13,840 nt of DNA from a virus: the UHGV virus genome UHGV-0179107; one strand, written 5' to 3'. How positions within the stretch are numbered: position 1 is the first letter of the stretch; each line of letters begins with the position of its first letter. Shown in pieces: positions 2,480 through 13,840 of the stretch. The notes under the pieces are model-generated. The model saw only the letters and a list, made by a program, of their open reading frames with translations, did no database searches and had not been told where the DNA came from. The position numbers and the translations under genes were made by a program.

Positions 2480-3397
2480 TTATTTATCAAGTAAAACCAT
2501 CTTGCCCTCTCTTAAGCGGCAATTTTGCCATGCTGGGAAGGGGTTCAATAAATCTCCGGGATTGGCTTCAGTGTCCACAATAATTTCTATCCCTTCGTTT
2601 TCTTTTAATAGATTTGCTAGACGAAAGGCTTGATCAGTAAGATGCCAATATTTAGCAGAATTCATTATTTTGCCATCAATGGTGCCTTTAATATTTTTCA
2701 TCACCTCATAGCCATAGATTTCATCACGCAATACGCTAAGTTTTACCCTTCCTTTACCTTTATATTTAGCTTTAGCTGCCAGATATGCCGCCTTTGCTTC
2801 AGAATTCGTCAGAACTGGATAACCGTAAAAATCTTTCTCACGTTTGCCAGCGTCTCTACGGCGTTCTCTGCGTTCTTTTTTAGGTTGGGAAGGGGATTGC
2901 ATTGCCTCGGGCTTTTCAGGCTGCTGTGCGGCTTGTTTTGGGGCTTCCTGAGGCTGTTCTACTTTAGCGGCAGTCTTTCCGAAAGTCTCTAAGATGCCTT
3001 CTGGAATATTTACGCCCTTCTCGATGCACATATCCAACAATTGATCAGGGGTTTTCAGCAATTCGTAATGATTAGATTTGCCTTTTTTAACAATTGAAAT
3101 AAGCCCAGCATTTTCAAGAGATTTAATAGCGCTGGCTATTTTCCCGCGATCCTTTCTGAGTTGAGTTGCCAGTTTTTGCTCTGAAATATAAATTCCCTCA
3201 CCGTTAAAATGAAAGCCCACCATTTTTCCATAAATTAACATTTCAAAGTCTGTTAAATAAAAGCGCTCTTTAACTGTTCCCGTCTTTTTATTAGAGATTG
3301 TTGTTGCTACCGGTTTATCAAAATCATACTGAATAAAGAAATCGAAAGAGGGGGTAAAAGGTGCCCCCAGTCTATTTCCTGCCATAATTTCCCCCAT
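2480..3397 (-). CDS. Putative iteron-binding replication initiator / replisome organiser (305 aa): N-terminal winged-helix domain, Q/P/E/K-rich linker, C-terminal domain
   Basis: ORF track. The N-terminal domain (KERFYLTDFEMLIYGKMVGFHF...ISEQKLATQL...AIKSLENAGLISIVKKGKSNHYEL) has the winged-helix layout of lambda-O / phage replisome-organiser type proteins, followed by a basic low-complexity linker (KKERRERRRDAGKREKD). ATG 3397 overlaps the TAA of the upstream paralog; an alternative start at 3385 gives matching MA-N N-termini in both paralogs. Confidence 0.65.
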   Translation of the reverse strand: MGEIMAGNRLGAPFTPSFDFFIQYDFDKPVATTISNKKTGTVKERFYLTDFEMLIYGKMVGFHFNGEGIYISEQKLATQLRKDRGKIASAIKSLENAGLISIVKKGKSNHYELLKTPDQLLDMCIEKGVNIPEGILETFGKTAAKVEQPQEAPKQAAQQPEKPEAMQSPSQPKKERRERRRDAGKREKDFYGYPVLTNSEAKAAYLAAKAKYKGKGRVKLSVLRDEIYGYEVMKNIKGTIDGKIMNSAKYWHLTDQAFRLANLLKENEGIEIIVDTEANPGDLLNPFPAWQNCRLREGKMVLLDK

Positions 3398-3783
3398 TAA
3401 TATATAAAATATTCTCTAATACCCTGCTCATCGCACATCTTGCCAAGCTGATCAGGGGTAATTAGCAATTCGTAGATATTCGATTTGCCCTGTTCTCGTT
3501 TAACGTTTATCAGACCTGCAGCTTCTAATGTTTTGATTGCCGACCTTACTGTTTTCTCTGTAACATCATAATCGTCTGCTAATGTCTGCGTCGAAAGCTC
3601 TGAGATAATTATTTCTTCACCCTCCTTAAAAGAATAACTTACCATTTCACCATAAATTGTTACCTCCAACAAATTTAAGTGAAATCTTTCTTTATTGGTT
3701 GCAGTTTTTGCAATCGGATTTTTAAAAGTGTATTTGATGAAACGTTTAAAAATGGGAGTAAAATTTTCATCGTTGTTTGCCAT
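3397..3783 (-). CDS. Truncated paralog of the adjacent initiator (about 128 aa): winged-helix DNA-binding domain only
   Basis: Clear paralogy with the N-terminus of the 305-aa protein (NFTPIFKRFIKYTF vs PFTPSFDFFIQYDF; GKSNIYELLITPDQLGKMCDEQG vs GKSNHYELLKTPDQLLDMCIEKG). The track start at 3798 is a TTG that overlaps the SD; ATG 3783-3781 with GGAGG 8 nt upstream is the likely start. Confidence 0.65.
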   Translation of the reverse strand: MANNDENFTPIFKRFIKYTFKNPIAKTATNKERFHLNLLEVTIYGEMVSYSFKEGEEIIISELSTQTLADDYDVTEKTVRSAIKTLEAAGLINVKREQGKSNIYELLITPDQLGKMCDEQGIREYFIY

Positions 3784-3807
3784 AATATGATCCTCCAAGA
3801 TTATTTA

Positions 3808-4017: not shown

Positions 4018-4138
4018 AATGAGGCCTCCTATAATTCGAATCAGAATGATATACGGTTAAAAAGAAACGGGAACTAATAGCTCCCGCCAGTTAATTAAGG
4101 AAATCCACTATGATGACTTAGTGTATCCCTATGCTTTA

Positions 4139-4170
4139 TATTTTATCAGACATTCGTCAAATTGTCAACA
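4139..4170 (-). promoter_or_regulatory. Candidate sigma70 promoter for the leftward operon (-35 TTGACA, 17-nt spacer, -10 TAAAAT)
   Basis: Minus-strand reading: TGTTGACAATTTGAcgaatgtctgaTAAAAT. The first 14 nt are identical to the -35 region of the capsid promoter at 8017-8030, and the spacers are similar. About 115 nt of leader would precede ATG 4017. Confidence 0.4.
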
Positions 4171-4340
4171 ATCTTTTTGTATTTATCTATCATTTTTTCT
4201 TCAAGATTGTCGATTGCAGTCACTCCGGCTATGTAGGCAACACCGCACCACAGTACAGCCAGGTTGATGATCGCTATTGCATCAGTAATTTCCACATTGA
4301 CCTCCGGATCTGTTTCTCCCCCTATTTATAATCTTATCAT

Positions 4341-4489
4341 ATTGTCAACCAATTGTCAATGAGAATTATTATCATTTAGGTGTGCTATAGGTACAAGCAA
4401 GTCCACAGCAAAGGGGTAAGCATTATTAATGGCCCCTACCGTGTCAAAACCAAAATCACTTATAGCATTTATTCAATAAGATTGTCAAT
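4341..4489 (-). promoter_or_regulatory. Three further ATTGTCAA(C/T) sites (4341-4349, 4352-4360, 4481-4489), each a TTGACA hexamer on the minus strand
   Basis: Seen directly. With the site at 4161-4169 this makes four same-orientation copies in about 330 bp. Possible -10 elements are weak (TAAGAT, TATAAG), so these may be operators or secondary promoters. Confidence 0.35.
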
Positions 4490-4801
4490 GGCCCACAACA
4501 TGCCTTCCTGCAGAAGGTTTGATTTTAATCAAATCCACGAAGTGGACCACAGGAGGGAGAGCACTTTTTGCCTTAGGCGCTCTAAAATCAATTCTAACGC
4601 GATTTAGAGGTCAGGTAATGCAATTGCACTACTCACCACAGTTAATGCAGCCAGAAGGCCATTTAGGGGCCCTATTTTTGATTTATGAGTGTCATATTAC
4701 GTGCATGCACGCGCGGGAGACTCTTTGCTGCCTCCTTCCGGCGCTGGCAAGCTTTCGGCAGCGGTCCACATTGTGGGCCTCATGCTGACGCATTCGCCGG
4801 A

Positions 4802-4963
4802 CCCACACAGACCCGAAGGGCTTAGCCATGGGCTAAGGTGCCGTAGGCACTCCCACACACAATTGGGTGACGTGTCATGTATGGAATACATTGTCACCCC
4901 ACACACAGGCCGACGTAGTCGGTTTAGCTGTATAGCTAAAGTCACAAAGTGACCCACACACAG
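4802..4963 (+). repeat. Array of about 50-bp units, each beginning with CCCACACACAG and containing different short perfect palindromes
   Basis: Punctuation motif at 4802, 4852, 4898 and 4954. Palindromes: CTTAGCC-ATG-GGCTAAG (4821-4837), GTGCC-GTA-GGCAC (4838-4850), GGGTGAC...GTCACCC (4865-4899), CCGAC-GTA-GTCGG (4910-4922), TTAGCT-GTAT-AGCTAA (4924-4939), GTCAC-AAA-GTGAC (4941-4953). Confidence 0.6.
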
Positions 4964-4966
4964 ATT

Positions 4967-5003
4967 GCCTAAAGAGTCGCTCATGCTCTTTAGGCTTTCA
5001 TTT
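4967..5003 (+). terminator. Candidate intrinsic terminator closing the hairpin array
   Basis: Perfect 10-bp stem GCCTAAAGAG / CTCTTTAGGC (4967-4976 and 4986-4995) with a 9-nt loop, followed by TTTCATTT. The minus-strand side has no U-tract. Confidence 0.4.
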
Positions 5004-5124
5004 GTGGGTTAAGCTTTTCCCTTAGAAAACCTTCCCCACTCTCTGATCCCTCCCCATCCCCCCTTGTTGGGGGATTATAGGGGGAGTTCTTTTTATTGAT
5101 CTATTCTCTTTATCTATTAGTGTG

Positions 5125-5270
5125 GGAAATCCCAGCATATATATGTAGGAAATTCCCGCATATATATGTTGGAAATACCAGCATATCCCTTTCTGTGTAT
5201 GGTTGAATATGCGGGAAATTCCAGCATATCGATCCCTATGCATGTGGGAACATGTGGGAAATACCGACAG
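5125..5270. repeat. Iteron array, candidate replication origin: GGAAAT-N-CC-(A/C)-GCATAT repeats
   Basis: Four 16-bp copies at 5125-5140, 5148-5163, 5171-5186 and 5214-5229. The first three are spaced exactly 23 bp (about two helical turns), the fourth is 43 bp further. Degenerate copies follow (tandem CATGTGGGAA x2 at 5241-5260; GGAAATACCGACAG at 5257-5270; GGAAATATGCAGATC at 5403-5417). Confidence 0.55.
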
Positions 5271-6332
5271 GTCTGTGTGGCTTAATTTGACTTGATATTG
5301 ACTAACAAAGGCCTTCGTAGAAGGTTTGAGATGAGCTCAAATCACCATATGTGACTAACAAACCTCTCTCCTCTCTCTTTGCTTTGATTTTCTCTCATGT
5401 GTGGGAAATATGCAGATCAACACCCTTTGATTTTATCGACAGGTATGTTGACACGCCCTACGGTTGTGAGGCCCGGGCATCATAAGTATGGCCCCTGGGG
5501 CAGTCCATCCTTCCCTCACACAGGACAATGAATACACTCCTTGCAGTCATGAATACATAAAGAACATGAAAGACTGTTCACACCAACACGCCGATAAATT
5601 GCCTGAAGAGGCTTACATGGTGGGATTGTTGTGTGGGTAATAGTGATCATGCTAACAGATTATGTTAATCAGATGTAAATTCCGATTTTGTGGTCTGCAG
5701 ATAGCAAACTATACTGGTTAGATGATCAGGGGAATGACTACAAAACAATCAAAAATGTGGGATATAGACATCTATACTTCTAATGTGCTGTGTGGGGTGT
5801 TAGTGCGTCCTAACCTCTAAGTCATTGATTTTAAGTGTTGGGAGAGATGCATTTAACATAATAGATCTTATCTACACTAATAAAGCGCACTACAAAATCT
5901 GATTTAAAAATCATGATAAGGAGGCCCAGAATTTACGTACAGTCACCTGAATAAATAATGTGCACAACATACAGCAAAGCTTAAGAATTAACATAATAGC
6001 AACGTGGTCAGTAGTGGTGTGATATTTGAGAATTGTTAGAAGAAAAAAGGGAGGTGGGGGAGCGCCTGCCTGGCACCTCAGACGAACATCTGACGGGTAT
6101 TAATACCGCTAATGGATATTTCTGACACCCACACCCAAGACCGCTTTCAGCACATAGCCATACACCGCACAGGATGCAATTGTGATAACAAAAAATGGGG
6201 GTGTAATAGGGTAGGCTGTCTTTCATCAAAATCACTTCTACGACGTTACCAGAGTGATAACAAGAAAACAGGCCTCTAAGATTATCTGTGCCTCGTTTTT
6301 AGCTTTTTGTGTGGTTACCAGGTGAAGAGGAA

Positions 6333-6497
6333 ATGTTAAAAACTGTTCATTTTATGCACAAACTAGTCAGGGTGATACCACAAAATGAGGCGCAAGAAAT
6401 CCAGCTGCAGATAATCTTGCAGCCAGATTTTGCAGTTTTTGAGGGTATGTTAAATTTGACAAAAATAGAGAAAAGGCTTATTAAGATAACTTATTGA
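6333..6497 (+). CDS. Possible small ORF (54 aa from ATG 6333), weak
   Basis: ORF track 6309..6497 starts at a GTG; the internal ATG 6333 has GGTGA about 7 nt upstream. It is the only moderately plausible ORF in the 2.7-kb gap, with no recognisable family. Could be non-coding. Confidence 0.2.
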   Translation: MLKTVHFMHKLVRVIPQNEAQEIQLQIILQPDFAVFEGMLNLTKIEKRLIKITY

Positions 6498-6571
6498 TTT
6501 TATTAGTATTATGAAAAAGGGTTACACCCTCTCTCTTACTCTGTCAACCGGGCGGTTGTGGCATAAAACGG

Positions 6572-6697
6572 ATTAAATCAATAAATAGGCATTAAATACC
6601 CATTAAATACCCCTTAAATAGGGGTTAATTGCTCAGGACTGAAAGGAGTGTAAATAGGGGATAAATAGGGGTTAATTGAGGGATAAATAAAAAGGGG
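6572..6697. repeat. AT-rich direct-repeat cluster: TAAATAGGGGTTAATTG x2 plus shorter TAAATAGG and ATTAAAT copies
   Basis: 17-mer at 6615-6631 and 6662-6678 (47 bp apart); TAAATAGGGG at 6651-6660; TAAATAGG at 6582-6589; ATTAAAT at 6572, 6591 and 6603. Lies just beyond the terminator of the membrane-protein operon. Confidence 0.55.
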
Positions 6698-6710
6698 CCG
6701 TGATGGCCCC
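6681..6710 (-). terminator. Rho-independent terminator of the leftward HTH / membrane-protein operon
   Basis: Minus strand: GGGGCC-AUCAC-GGCCCC (plus 6694-6710) followed by UUUUUAUUUAU, starting 8 nt after the TGA at 6721-6719. Confidence 0.7.
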
Positions 6711-6718
6711 CTGGTAGG

Positions 6719-7237
6719 TCAGAACAGTTTTTTGCTTTTTCTCCAACTAACGCCGCGTTTGCCTATGCTCAGCCAGCCGCCAGCGAATCGGGTACCTGCG
6801 GTAACACTAGCTCCCCTGGTGCCTACATGTGCATAAATACCTGCCCCACTGCTACCACCGCTTCTACGGCTTTTTCCGCCATCGATATCGAGGAGAGCAC
6901 AGATTGCACCCCACAAAAAGCCAACCAACCAATATACATATGCTAAGCCTAAAACACCCCAGGTTACCGCCCACCCCTCTAGACTAGTGGGGAAGTAGAA
7001 AGCATTGAGAACAGCATTTATAGGACGGATCAGGAGAGAATCTATAAAACCAATATCCACATGAAACGGGCCATCACCGAACTTGCTACTGCCAATAAAC
7101 AAGGTAGCAGGGTAAAAACAGATAGCCATTAACCAAGGCCCGGCTATCAAAAACGCTGCAGTGTACTGAAAGAACATTTTTACCAGTTCTTTAAAAAGCC
7201 TTTTATTTACTGATTCTTTGTCTTTCTGGAATAACAT
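6719..7237 (-). CDS. Membrane protein (172 aa) with two predicted transmembrane helices and a Gly/Ser/Arg-rich C-terminal tail
   Basis: ORF track. Hydrophobic segments FFQYTAAFLIAGPWLMAICFYPATLFI and WAVTWGVLGLAYVYWLVGFLWGAICALL; tail GKSRRSGGSSGAGIYAHVGTRGAS...SWRKSKK. A purine-rich SD-like stretch precedes ATG 7237. No family recognised. Confidence 0.65.
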   Translation of the reverse strand: MLFQKDKESVNKRLFKELVKMFFQYTAAFLIAGPWLMAICFYPATLFIGSSKFGDGPFHVDIGFIDSLLIRPINAVLNAFYFPTSLEGWAVTWGVLGLAYVYWLVGFLWGAICALLDIDGGKSRRSGGSSGAGIYAHVGTRGASVTAGTRFAGGWLSIGKRGVSWRKSKKLF

Positions 7238-7779: not shown

Positions 7780-8016
7780 ATCTATAACCTTTTGCGAGAA
7801 GTTGATTTGTTTGCTCGGTTGGGTGCTATCAATGCTCCCCTTCCTTGATTCGAACTATAGCCGGGTAAATCCCCGGAAAACATTGATATTGATCAAAAGA
7901 TATCTATCACGAATGAAAAAGTTATGATAGATGCTATGAGATGACGTATTGATGGGATTGATAGAGGTCTGAAAATACCGTTACCACGCTAATTATTAGA
8001 ATTTATATAATCAGGG

Positions 8017-8047
8017 TGTTGACAATTTGAGAGAATACTGATATAAT
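8017..8047 (+). promoter_or_regulatory. Consensus sigma70 promoter upstream of the capsid genes
   Basis: TTGACA (8019-8024), 17-nt spacer, TATAAT (8042-8047), with an AT-rich UP-like tract upstream (7985-8015). The 14-mer TGTTGACAATTTGA (8017-8030) is identical to the reverse complement of 4157-4170. Confidence 0.6.
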
Positions 8048-8190
8048 ATACATATACACCGTAAATCTTTGGTGAAAGTGATTTGCCGTATTTTCCTCCA
8101 AAGTAAAGGCGACCAGGTAGCGGTGCCGCCTTATAAATAACACTACCCTGATCATCGTTGAGTGGTCGATTAATTCTCCTATTGGGCTAG

Positions 8191-8199
8191 TTATCCACA
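8191..8199 (+). promoter_or_regulatory. Perfect DnaA-box consensus TTATCCACA in the capsid leader
   Basis: Exact 9-mer seen directly. It overlaps the left arm of an 8-bp inverted repeat CCACACAG / CTGTGTGG (8195-8202 and 8221-8228). Only one copy, so a chance match is possible. Confidence 0.3.
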
Positions 8200-12007: not shown

Positions 12008-12036
12008 CGCCCCGCATCAAAAGGATACCGGAGAAG

Positions 12037-12145: not shown

Positions 12146-13840
12146 TTAGAAAAGCTGATTAGATTCCTGTGTGGCTTTCCAATCCAACTGATCGCTGACT
12201 TCCTTCTGGATCACCCTGGCAATTCCCCCCTCATCAATGGTTATCTCCCATTTGCCGGAGATCTCACCATGAGGCACCACATTAACCTGAGCAGGTTGAT
12301 AGCCGCCATTCTGAATAGCCGTACCCGTGCTAGGAGTAGGACGTGACGGGCTAATTGTTGGATATGGATTAAAGGAAGCTCCTTTGCTGATGTAGCTATG
12401 GTTATAGGCCCCTGGCTTGGTCATAGCATCCTGCTCATCACTGAGAAGGCCTTTAGATTTAGCCCACTCCCCGAACTGATCAGCCTTGCTTTGCATCCAT
12501 CCTCTGAACTTCTCACCTACCGTCTTAGCGCCAAGTGCGCCAGCGACACCAACACCCACACCTGCGGCACTGCCAGCGGCTAATGCTGTTGTTGGGCTTC
12601 CAGCGACTGCCCCGCCAGCACCCTTAACGAGATTGCCCAGACCTGGAATCTTGCCTATCAGAGAAATCAGTTGGGTGACAAGTGAAACAAATCCGGTTAG
12701 AGGGGAAAGCAGTGTAGTAATAACTTTCAGACCAGCTAAGCCAACCACCAGTTTTCCGATAAGCTCGCCAACCTCTGATCCGGTCATGCCGAACTCTTTA
12801 GCCTTAACCTCGATATAGCCCTTAGCGAAGCCTACCCAATACATGATCTCACGCATGGCAGCCCCGACTGCCTCACCAAACTGTTTTGCCGCGCTCCCGC
12901 TGCCGTCCATATCAGTGGTGAGGTCTTCGAAGATGGAGATTAGAGATTCAGATAAGCTAATAACGCCATCTGCAGGATCTACAACACCCATAAACTGAAT
13001 CGCCAGCTCGTTAAAGCTGTTTTTCATGCGCTGCATTGCTACTTCTGGCTGTTTCATGGATTCAGCAAAAGCTTTAGTTTCTTTTGCAGCACCCCAGATT
13101 TTCACCAGAGAAGGAAGAAGCTTGTCCAGGGTGATTTTGCCATCTTTAAGGGCTTTATCGAATTCCTGGGCATTCTTGATGATTCCGGCATCAATAGCGG
13201 CCTGTTGGAAGTCTTGTTGTGAGCCTGCAAAGGCTTCTGCCAGCTGCCCCCGCAGCTCCTCCGCCATGACTTTATTTTTTGAAGCCATTTGTTGGACCGC
13301 AACAAGCGCCCTGTTTTGTTGCTCACCAGTAGCACCCACTGAGCGGCCTTTAATAGCCATAGCCTCAAAAAGAGCCTGCTTATCAGATTCCTTCATGGTG
13401 GGGGTAGCGGCAGCAAAACGCATATAGCCGCCTTCCATCTCACGCTGATCCATCCCGTAGGTGTAGGCTGTGTTCTTGATGAAAGCCATCTGTTGGTCAG
13501 TCTTGGCTTTATCATCCTTGTTCTGGGCCATTAAACCGAAGTAGGCACTGTTGCGATCTGCAAGGCTGCTCATAGCACCACTAACAGCACGCTGAACACC
13601 CCAGCCAGCGGCAGTAAGGCCGATAGCTATCTTGCCTAAAGTGGAATTCAGTTTCCCCAGGTTGTCATGCAGCTTGGCCCCTGTGATCGCAACTTTATCC
13701 AGTCTGCTCTGGAATTTTCCGGCTTCTGCTGTTGCCATCTTCATTTCAGCTCTGAGTCGGGCCATTTTCTGATTATAGGTCTGCAGGTTGATAGCCCCTT
13801 TAGCATAATCAGCATTAACTCTCTGAATTCTGGATTGGAA
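12146..13840 (-). CDS. Tail tape measure protein, C-terminal about 564 codons; start codon lies beyond the window end
   Basis: Hand translation shows the frame is open from 13840 to the stop at 12148-12146; the track's M at 13765 is internal. Contains a TMP-core-like segment (TGEQQNRALVAVQQMASKNKVMAEELRGQLAEAF), coiled-coil N-terminal part, and a Gly/Ala-rich hydrophobic segment typical of tape measure proteins. Confidence 0.8.
   Translation of the reverse strand, partial: FQSRIQRVNADYAKGAINLQTYNQKMARLRAEMKMATAEAGKFQSRLDKVAITGAKLHDNLGKLNSTLGKIAIGLTAAGWGVQRAVSGAMSSLADRNSAYFGLMAQNKDDKAKTDQQMAFIKNTAYTYGMDQREMEGGYMRFAAATPTMKESDKQALFEAMAIKGRSVGATGEQQNRALVAVQQMASKNKVMAEELRGQLAEAFAGSQQDFQQAAIDAGIIKNAQEFDKALKDGKITLDKLLPSLVKIWGAAKETKAFAESMKQPEVAMQRMKNSFNELAIQFMGVVDPADGVISLSESLISIFEDLTTDMDGSGSAAKQFGEAVGAAMREIMYWVGFAKGYIEVKAKEFGMTGSEVGELIGKLVVGLAGLKVITTLLSPLTGFVSLVTQLISLIGKIPGLGNLVKGAGGAVAGSPTTALAAGSAAGVGVGVAGALGAKTVGEKFRGWMQSKADQFGEWAKSKGLLSDEQDAMTKPGAYNHSYISKGASFNPYPTISPSRPTPSTGTAIQNGGYQPAQVNVVPHGEISGKWEITIDEGGIARVIQKEVSDQLDWKATQESNQLF

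Follow-up and report, generated by a model that had tools for sequence, protein, structure and literature searches.

Where the replication of the viral genome record UHGV-0179107 starts, and which protein directs it, is the question raised by a cluster of short repeats that begins at position 5118 of this DNA. The window, meaning the whole stretch of 13,840 nucleotides (nt) that was analysed and from whose first letter all positions are counted, had been interpreted before in a sequence-only reading, according to which the repeats look like an iteron origin, plasmid-style or in the style of the lambda origin, with two tandem winged-helix paralogs as the matching binding proteins. A comparison with related elements suggests that the cassette at 5118-5275 is probably the class-specific, initiator-binding part of a plasmid replication origin. 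The repeats are best explained as real binding sites which are specific for a predicted winged-helix protein of 305 amino acids (aa), encoded on the minus strand at 2480-3397 and hereafter called Rep. An iteron origin is the best explanation, since the sites covary with the N-terminal domain of Rep over about 35 elements, the geometry of the four sites is conserved, an AT-rich block adjoins them, and neither an overlapping promoter nor any other replication gene was found. Of the two styles proposed, the lambda-like one holds, as the sites are palindromic, whereas plasmid-style direct repeats do not describe them. Likewise, the covariation speaks for the 305-aa protein as binder, but not for its paralog of 128 or 133 aa, which belongs to a class (E) without any such site in the window. 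Iteron origins with a winged-helix initiator are a known kind of system; what this locus adds is a concrete and testable origin and initiator for a little studied family of phage-like E. coli plasmids of about 13-14 kb.

The window is a complete circular plasmid replicon of about 13.8 kb, because the records of its relatives are circular permutations of it. A linear element had been suspected from records that align with the window end to end, and was rejected since these records are circular and merely permuted. Circular plasmids of 13.2-13.7 kb from complete E. coli genomes (7 of 5,426) match the window over its whole length at 91-95% identity, and none of the matches in these 5,426 genomes was chromosomal. 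Homologs of Rep form about 97 clusters at 90% identity, almost all of them on contigs of 13.3-14.4 kb from E. coli, Shigella or E. albertii. Two PLSDB records class their plasmids as non-mobilizable and give no replicon type in the typing line; a description of the plasmid family was not found in the searched literature. An origin is to be expected on the window because a plasmid must carry one and because Rep is the only candidate replication protein: among the scanned open reading frames (ORFs) no polymerase, helicase, primase, loader, partition NTPase, terminase, portal or integrase was recognised by Pfam, PHROGs, NCBIfam or the annotations of relatives, and the ORFs downstream of rep (52, 162, 147, 129 and 78 aa) matched no loader or helicase family in Pfam, PHROGs and NCBIfam. 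About 2.3 kb (4360-6690), which include the repeats, are without a credible ORF. The GC skew was judged uninformative at this element size and gene orientation.

A repeat search returned a 23-nt unit in five copies (5121-5143, 5144-5166, 5167-5189, 5210-5232 and 5253-5275) with spacings of 23, 23, 43 and 43 base pairs (bp). The 16-mer GGAAATNCCNGCATAT is exact at 5125, 5148, 5171 and 5214, which bears out the earlier description of three 16-bp repeats at 23-bp intervals and a fourth one 43 bp further on. If up to two mismatches are allowed, this 16-mer has seven matches on both strands (0.17 expected), a number that was reached in none of 200 dinucleotide-preserving shuffles. As the inverted-repeat list and the minus-strand matches reveal, each unit is itself a near-perfect inverted repeat of 23 bp (ATATGyNGGAAATNCCNGCATAT). 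In this palindromic register the four sites lie at 5118-5140, 5141-5163, 5164-5186 and 5207-5229, the first three without any spacer, with centre-to-centre distances of 23, 23 and 43 bp. Judged by this symmetry, the repeats are tandem palindromic sites of the dimer type rather than simple direct repeats. Iteron 1 (TAGTGTGGGAAATCCCAGCATAT), which is palindromic in its right half and core, stands directly 3′ of the conserved sequence TTATCTATTAG and is abutted by the near-palindrome of iteron 2 (ATATGTAGGAAATTCCCGCATAT), which in turn is abutted by that of iteron 3 (ATATGTTGGAAATACCAGCATAT). Iteron 4 (ATATGCGGGAAATTCCAGCATAT) is the best palindrome of the four, and its offset of 43 bp from iteron 3 is the same in every relative.

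The degenerate copies downstream, to which the sequence-only reading had also pointed, are present, but they are heterogeneous. The fifth site (5250-5272, ACATGTGGGAAATACCGACAGGT) has the core GGGAAATnCC of iterons 1-4, combined with the outer arm ACAGGT of another class, A2; the corresponding repeat unit at 5253-5275, TGTGGGAAATACCGACAGGT, is of the iteron class found in L001 and other related plasmids (relatives are referred to by L-numbers), and most of the relatives shown have an A2-like site at the right-hand end of their cassette. The other downstream copy, TGTGTGGGAAATATGCA at 5396-5412, is a universally conserved motif that is kept in all relatives whatever their iteron class, and hence not a class-specific iteron.

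BLAST of the window against nine relatives showed a backbone of 90-95% identity with two shared breaks. In the first one, at the rep gene, nucleotide homology disappears or drops strongly between about 2270 and an end point that varies with the relative (2630-3800). The second one begins at 5120-5131 and extends to 5351, with homology resuming exactly at 5352 in all relatives except L004; this second break is the iteron cassette. Cassettes were delimited by two invariant sequences, TTATCTATTAG (5110-5120) as left anchor and CATGTGTGGGAAATATGCA as right motif, and could be extracted from 34 elements and additionally from L037-L039. In every one of them three 23-bp units abut one another and a fourth follows about 43 bp later, at offsets of 0, 23, 46 and about 90 after TTATCTATTAG. 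The iterons fall into seven discrete sequence classes, all with palindromic cores and a constant period of 23 bp; in every class the unit is a near-perfect inverted repeat, examples being CGGTAATATTTACCG, GTAAAATATTTTAC and CGGAGAAATTCTCCG. Class A1 (GGGAAATnCC with GCATAT) comprises the window and L037-L039, class A2 (GGGAAATnCC with ACAGGT) L001, L004, L013 and L025, class B (GTGAGAAATyyTCAG) L007, L015-L024 and L034, and class C (CGGAGAAATyTTCCG) L006. Class D (GTAAAAnATTTTnAC) was found in L002, L011, L012, L027-L029, L033, L035 and L036, class E (CGGnAATATTTACCG) in L003, L005, L009 and L030, and class F (CGGTAAATTTTACCG) in L008, L010 and L026. A scan of 22 elements for sites of their own class found three to four in the first 140 bp of the cassette (four in 21 of the 22), none or one elsewhere in the cassette and none at all in the remaining ~13 kb.

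The protein encoded at the first break changes together with the sites. Rep proteins are built as mosaics, in which an N-terminal winged-helix domain is joined by a conserved linker (QEAPKQA...) to one of several C-terminal alleles, and the helix-turn-helix segment of the N-terminal domain sorts exactly with the iteron class. It reads LRKDRGKI[A/V]SAIKSL in class A, CGVSDRKIIESIKTL in class B, CGVSDRKIRDSIKSL in class C, SRPT[V/I]I[N/K][S/A]IKSL in class D, DATEKTVRSAIKTL in class E and GWTPKTVRTAIHSL in class F. Similar helices pair with similar sites (E and F, B and C), and the proteins of A1 and A2 differ by one recognition-helix residue (Ala/Val) plus the wing, while their sites differ in the outer arm (GCATAT vs ACAGGT). 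The recognition-helix segment LRKDRGKIASAIKSL of the window Rep is specific to its iteron class. All 12 clusters that are 97-100% identical to the window Rep share its helix, and the three near-identical proteins whose sites could be inspected (those of L037-L039, 97-98% identical) go along with A1 sites, even where the left flank is of another allele. In contrast, a given iteron class was seen with two or three C-terminal clusters, and a given C-terminal cluster with four or five iteron classes. This distribution indicates that the iteron class pairs specifically with the N-terminal domain of Rep, whichever C-terminal allele is attached; behind it stand about seven independent comparisons (the classes), not about 35 genomes, but the pattern is clean and covers changes on a fine as well as on a coarse scale. 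Initiator domain and iterons look like a specificity pair that can be swapped and that exists in at least seven classes. These would be the incompatibility types of this plasmid family and could underlie a typing scheme. The seven matched classes of domain and site, including the pair with a single recognition-helix difference, are also a dataset on how winged-helix initiators read DNA.

One element, L003, had been considered as a counter-example to this covariation, as it combines class-E sites with a very different protein of 303 aa (L003 10591-11502), in which the Rep linker is followed by an acidic C-terminus of another kind. The case was resolved by an additional repeat set of its own: at 13005-13117, in a 500-bp insertion to the left of the conserved C-rich tract, L003 has three repeats of about 30 nt (TATATCAnnTTGATATrTTGATA), spaced by 33 and 44 bp, which are absent from all other elements examined. 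They probably constitute iterons of a second kind, with the 303-aa protein as their cognate binder.

The identity of Rep as an initiator is indicated by its profile matches and its predicted fold. The ORF has 305 aa; database homologs have 301 aa and start with MAGN at 3385. In the AlphaFold model (mean pLDDT, the model confidence score, of 73) a winged-helix domain (residues 14-140) is followed by a disordered linker rich in Q, P, K and E (145-185) and by a second folded, family-specific C-terminal domain (186-305), which was unrelated to anything found in the searches. Nearly all PHROG profiles with a match to the N-terminal domain describe replication initiators or O-like proteins, with E-values of 1.8e-7 for a "replication initiation protein", 4.9e-6 for "replication initiation O-like" (phrog_678) and 4.9e-4 for phrog_345; the replication-initiation match of the paralog reaches 1e-8. 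Many members of the Rep family carry a precomputed match to PF13730, and no match to Phage_rep_O (E ≤ 0.1), Rep_3 or RepA_N was found in Rep with Pfam. Among the top 50 PDB matches found by Foldseek, the N-terminal domains of the RepA_N initiators 4pql, 4pt7 and 5kbj occupy ranks between 2 and 43 (E 0.016-0.07, which is not significant; 22-25% identity), and matches over about 260 columns lead, with weak E-values, to phage proteins named replication initiator, replisome organizer or RepA-like. A confirmed relative of Rep was not obtained from IMG/VR.

The assignment of the cassette as an origin has several weak points. What covariation of sequences would establish is a cognate pair of protein and DNA, and not the process which this pair serves. 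The Pfam support is marginal, as HTH_36 (PF13730) scores 20.8 bits for Rep and 27.4 bits for the paralog at a gathering threshold of 25, and the E-values of the Foldseek matches to initiators are no better than those of generic ArsR, MarR and TubR matches. Moreover, the cassette is without a DnaA-box array, with just a single box-like sequence that matches in eight of nine positions at 5433. This sequence, TTATCGACA (5433-5441), is partly conserved in relatives; the sole exact DnaA box of the window, TTATCCACA, is situated at 8191, far from the cassette, and a scan for host-factor sites showed neither a DnaA-box cluster nor a consensus for integration host factor (IHF) nor an enrichment of GATC at the cassette.

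These points leave some room for a hetero-immunity or regulatory module, in which Rep would be a winged-helix repressor, the three-plus-one palindromes would be cooperative operators that control converging non-coding transcripts, and replication would be driven by the host, for example RNA-primed from the flanking non-coding region. Palindromic sites at a spacing of about 23 bp are comparable to lambda OR1-3 (23-24 bp). As with lambda CI and its OR/OL operators, three such sites are adjacent with further ones at a distance, and a DNA-binding domain is exchanged together with its sites among otherwise similar genomes, a covariation typical of classic immunity regions. One source names a homolog of Rep a "winged helix-turn-helix transcription repressor", and the best matches among solved structures include the repressors ArsR, SmtB and MarR. 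The surroundings would suit transcriptional control as well, since the cassette is flanked by a terminator-ended plus-strand RNA unit and by a minus-strand promoter-like site (5507-5479), with C-run/G-run and polypurine tracts nearby. Yet, unlike the CI operators, the sites overlap no sigma-70 promoter: a scan of 5000-5478 on both strands yielded no promoter-like site at all. The recognizable promoters share a class-independent motif, ATTGTCAA, instead; in relatives with Reps of other classes, the promoter region with this motif can still be aligned (about 79-90% identity), which argues against Rep as a transcriptional immunity factor. In addition, the PHROG matches are overwhelmingly to replication initiators, the linker of 40 disordered residues and the second domain are not an oligomerisation or peptidase domain of the repressor type as in the C-terminal part of CI, and without Rep the plasmid would be left with no replication protein. 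An immunity module is hence considered improbable.

The origin, by comparison, agrees with what lies on the left side of the cassette. Iteron 1 directly adjoins a family-conserved AT-rich block (5087-5120, about 75% A + T), which contains TCTATT repeats and the 13-mer-like sequence GATCTATTCTCTT and which ends in the family-invariant TTATCTATTAG; this block is a candidate DNA-unwinding element. The sequence GATCTATTCTCTT resembles the 13-mer of the E. coli origin oriC, GATCTnTTnTTTT. On the far side of the block a conserved C-rich tract is followed by a C-run/G-run inverted repeat (5030-5086; CCCCCC TTGTT GGGGG ... GGGGG). To the right of the cassette, the segment 5352-5441 is identical in relatives of different class and holds TGACTAACAAA, the polypyrimidine tract CCTCTCTCCTCTCTCTTTGC, the above-mentioned TGTGTGGGAAATATGCA, the palindrome ATCAACACCCTTTGAT and the DnaA-box-like TTATCGACA.

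Based on these features a mechanism can be proposed in which replication would start at the cassette. Dimers of Rep would bind via their N-terminal winged-helix domain to four, perhaps five, palindromic iterons of 23 bp, three of them abutting and the fourth about four helical turns further on. The resulting complex, comparable to the O-some of lambda, might distort the DNA and thereby open the AT-rich block at 5087-5120, and the C-terminal domain of Rep, on its long disordered linker, could bring in the host helicase and replisome. A recruitment from the host is proposed because genes for a helicase, loader, primase or polymerase are lacking on the element.

The best reading of this arrangement is a lambda-O-like, dimer-bound iteron origin that lies about 1.7 kb away from its initiator. 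The origin of lambda consists of four inverted-repeat iterons, each bound by a dimer, with a period of about 20-23 bp and beside an AT-rich tract (PMC7466680, PMC3349717). Here, too, four imperfect inverted-repeat iterons (5118-5229) adjoin an AT-rich tract (5087-5120), the initiator consists of a DNA-binding N-terminal domain, a linker and a presumed C-terminal recruitment domain, initiator and origin form allelic specificity pairs among related elements, and PHROG profiles of O-like replication initiation proteins match the N-terminal domain of Rep. Unlike in lambda, the origin is placed outside the initiator gene: rep starts at 3385 or 3397 on the other strand with three features in between, so that the distance is about 1.7 kb from rep and about 1.3 kb from the paralog, the latter being the value of the sequence-only reading, which is confirmed. 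Further differences are that no gene for a P-like or DnaC-type loader exists here, that Rep lacks a Phage_rep_O match and has a C-terminal domain unrelated to anything found, and that the element is a stably maintained plasmid of 13.8 kb.

With the iteron plasmids of Gram-negative bacteria (pSC101, F, P1, R6K and RK2, with Rep_3 or TrfA-type initiators) the element shares its nature as an autonomous plasmid with a single, plasmid-encoded winged-helix protein as presumed initiator, an iteron cluster beside an AT-rich candidate unwinding element and outside of the rep gene, extra iteron-like sites nearby and an initiator-iteron pair as the expected incompatibility determinant. It differs from them by palindromic, dimer-type sites in place of direct repeats bound by monomers, by the lack of a Rep_3 (WH1-WH2) domain and of a clear DnaA-box array, by a spacing of 23 bp instead of about 22 bp, and by the absence of a cognate operator at the rep promoter, as no own-class site was found outside the cassette in the 22 scanned elements. 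The RepA_N initiators of staphylococcal and enterococcal plasmids likewise bind iterons by a dimeric N-terminal winged-helix domain and have a separate C-terminal domain for host specificity, but their iterons are located inside the rep gene, and Rep shows no Pfam RepA_N match.

A cognate pair of protein and iterons could also belong to a locus for copy control, incompatibility or partition, where Rep would pair plasmids (handcuffing) or mark a centromere and where initiation would take place elsewhere in the non-coding region of 2.3 kb. Among solved structures the best match of Rep by sequence, though a weak one, is TubR, a winged-helix protein that recognises centromeres and binds to iterons, and the extra single sites of other classes in the cassettes resemble a titration or incompatibility sequence. 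The most conserved part of the element, moreover, is the adjacent block of about 1 kb without an ORF (5546-6500). However, none of the scanned ORFs matched a ParA, ParM or TubZ-type NTPase, the four sites abut a conserved AT-rich block as they do in origins, and a second set of cognate sites that could be the true origin was not found. A function of this kind is regarded as quite unlikely. The block 5546-6500 has a column conservation of 88-98% (mostly 92-98%) across 32 elements, which is higher than that of the adjacent gene at 6719-7237 (64-78%), and the variable columns over the aligned region 5396-6845 show no 3-nt periodicity (234/217/202). No Rfam match was obtained for this block, which might specify a large non-coding RNA or act in cis, for example as a packaging signal.

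Packaging has to be considered for the iterons too. Besides small proteins of unknown function, a major capsid protein, a tape measure protein and a Dit-like baseplate protein are encoded in the window, and the element could be a phage satellite carried on a plasmid or else a phage-plasmid of minimal size. As no terminase or portal was recognised, it may depend on a helper phage, so that a packaging signal would be required somewhere in the large non-coding region, and the repeats might be the sites of a helper's small terminase subunit in a pac or cos region. That the sites covary with the element's own winged-helix protein and not with any terminase makes this very improbable, as does the existence of seven classes on a nearly identical backbone, given that a site dictated by a helper should be conserved. 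Nor is there similarity to any phage record: megablast with the whole window, blastn with the conserved non-coding block and tblastn with the capsid protein found nothing similar in 50,697 phage records. A 21-mer from the right flank of the cassette occurred in three metagenome loci, in no GTDB representative and in no viral contig.

The second of the tandem winged-helix proteins, encoded on the minus strand at 3397-3798, has 133 aa from a TTG start or 128 aa from an ATG at 3783 and consists of the N-terminal domain only, its ORF ending right after the winged-helix domain where the present rep gene begins. It is 50% identical to the N-terminal domain of the window Rep, yet 80% identical to those of the class-E Reps of L005 and L009, and has the class-E recognition helix TEKTVRSAI. 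By these similarities, the paralog is a truncated class-E Rep domain that is not matched to the iterons of the window. Indeed, the window contains no class-E site (CGGnAATATTTACCG), the best match having three mismatches, which is no better than chance. With an intact ORF and a ratio of nonsynonymous to synonymous substitution rates (dN/dS) of about 0.27 relative to class-E domains, the paralog may have retained a function, although these values are no proof of a function after truncation. Most relatives are without this paralog and others carry a different protein of N-terminal-domain-only type. A winged-helix family of about 166 aa (starting with MVDIRDVF...) is encoded between the gene for a 71-aa protein and rep in many relatives (L011, L013-L025 and L037-L039); it corresponds to the N-terminal part of the 303-aa protein of L003, and its recognition helix exists in several alleles. 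L001 has a 126-aa protein of yet another class. Both the class-E fragment of the window and the 166-aa family differ in class from the resident Rep, and their cognate sites are absent from the same element.

Foreign sites are retained as well. Downstream of the four own-class sites, cassettes hold single, well-preserved palindromes of other classes in partly syntenic order (e.g., L003 13233-13623, and L010), which may be fossils of earlier cassettes displaced from the AT-rich block or functional decoys. One such foreign palindrome, GTGAAAATTCTTCAC, is not a primary class in the sample. The matched swapping of domain and cassette across about 1.7 kb and the retention of foreign domain fragments and foreign iterons would be two unusual features of this system. 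Iteron-bearing plasmids are able to silence the replication of lambda (PMC3349717). It is conceivable, though rather doubtful, that replication specificity is an exchangeable and contested trait in this family: the N-terminal domain and the four-iteron cassette would be swapped as a pair, while foreign fragments and foreign iterons would serve as weapons or shields against co-infecting relatives, either by dominant-negative occupation of origins or by titration of a rival Rep, with the 133-aa protein being an anti-class-E exclusion factor and not a relic. If foreign fragments and iterons did function in this way, it would mean warfare between sibling plasmids at the level of replication.

On the left, the cassette is approached by a non-coding unit on the plus strand (4377-4995), which extends from a promoter-like site (4342-4369) to an intrinsic terminator (4967-4995) that is kept in nearly all relatives and ends transcription pointing at the origin. 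The unit is built of small hairpin modules separated by CCCACACA(C)AG, which are shuffled, duplicated or replaced among relatives with resulting lengths of 390 to 628 nt; the z-score of its minimum free energy is just -2.5. The 8-mer CCCACACA occurs 11 times in the window (0.32 expected), with four copies at 4802-4960 and others at 539, 5398, 5630, 5789, 7722, 8222 and 10424. Its orientation flips across the iteron cassette, the four left copies being on the plus strand and the seven others all on the minus strand, and this polarity is mostly kept in relatives, with few opposite copies. The 8-mer could be a polar, replication-related motif or an element for RNA-RNA pairing. On the right, the minus-strand promoter-like site at 5507-5479 (TGGACT-17-TATGAT) has a -35 element that is conserved in relatives. 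A putative RNA starting there would run into the origin and carry in its 5′ part CCCACACA and the long polypurine run AGAGAGAGGAGAGAGG (5352-5395), which could be of relevance for R-loop formation or priming.

A few observations concern the remaining parts of the element. Strong promoter-like sites are located at 4359-4331, 4168-4140 and 4342-4369, and a matching TTGACAAT...TATAAT was seen by direct reading at 8018-8050. The extended -35 motif TTGACAAT is common to the strong promoter-like sites; ATTGTCAA has five matches in comparison to 0.76 expected and probably serves a class-independent regulator as a shared operator. A similarity of 46 nt connects 4137-4182 with 8005-8050. No tRNA was found in the window and no Rfam match at gathering score, the only listed match being ctRNA with 23.6 bits at 12032 (threshold 50). 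The 39,610-bp plasmid p3RM10740 (L041, NZ_CP043822.1) had been considered as a cointegrate of different classes; this was rejected, as it is a head-to-tail trimer of one unit of 13.2-13.6 kb with frameshifted copies, and thus either a multimer or a long-read assembly artefact. The minus-strand early operon is headed by an ORF of 49 aa (4148-4294) with a GGAGG ribosome-binding site and a hydrophobic segment, annotated as a hypothetical protein in all relatives, and a terminator-like hairpin on the same strand (4088-4066) is situated just upstream of the gene for a 69-aa protein. This gene, the paralog and rep are bracketed by an inverted repeat of 32 bp (2437-2468 and 4088-4119, 84% complementary). 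The pair is also present in L016, one arm of it in L026 and neither in the other relatives checked, and it may be a recombination joint left by the exchange of modules.

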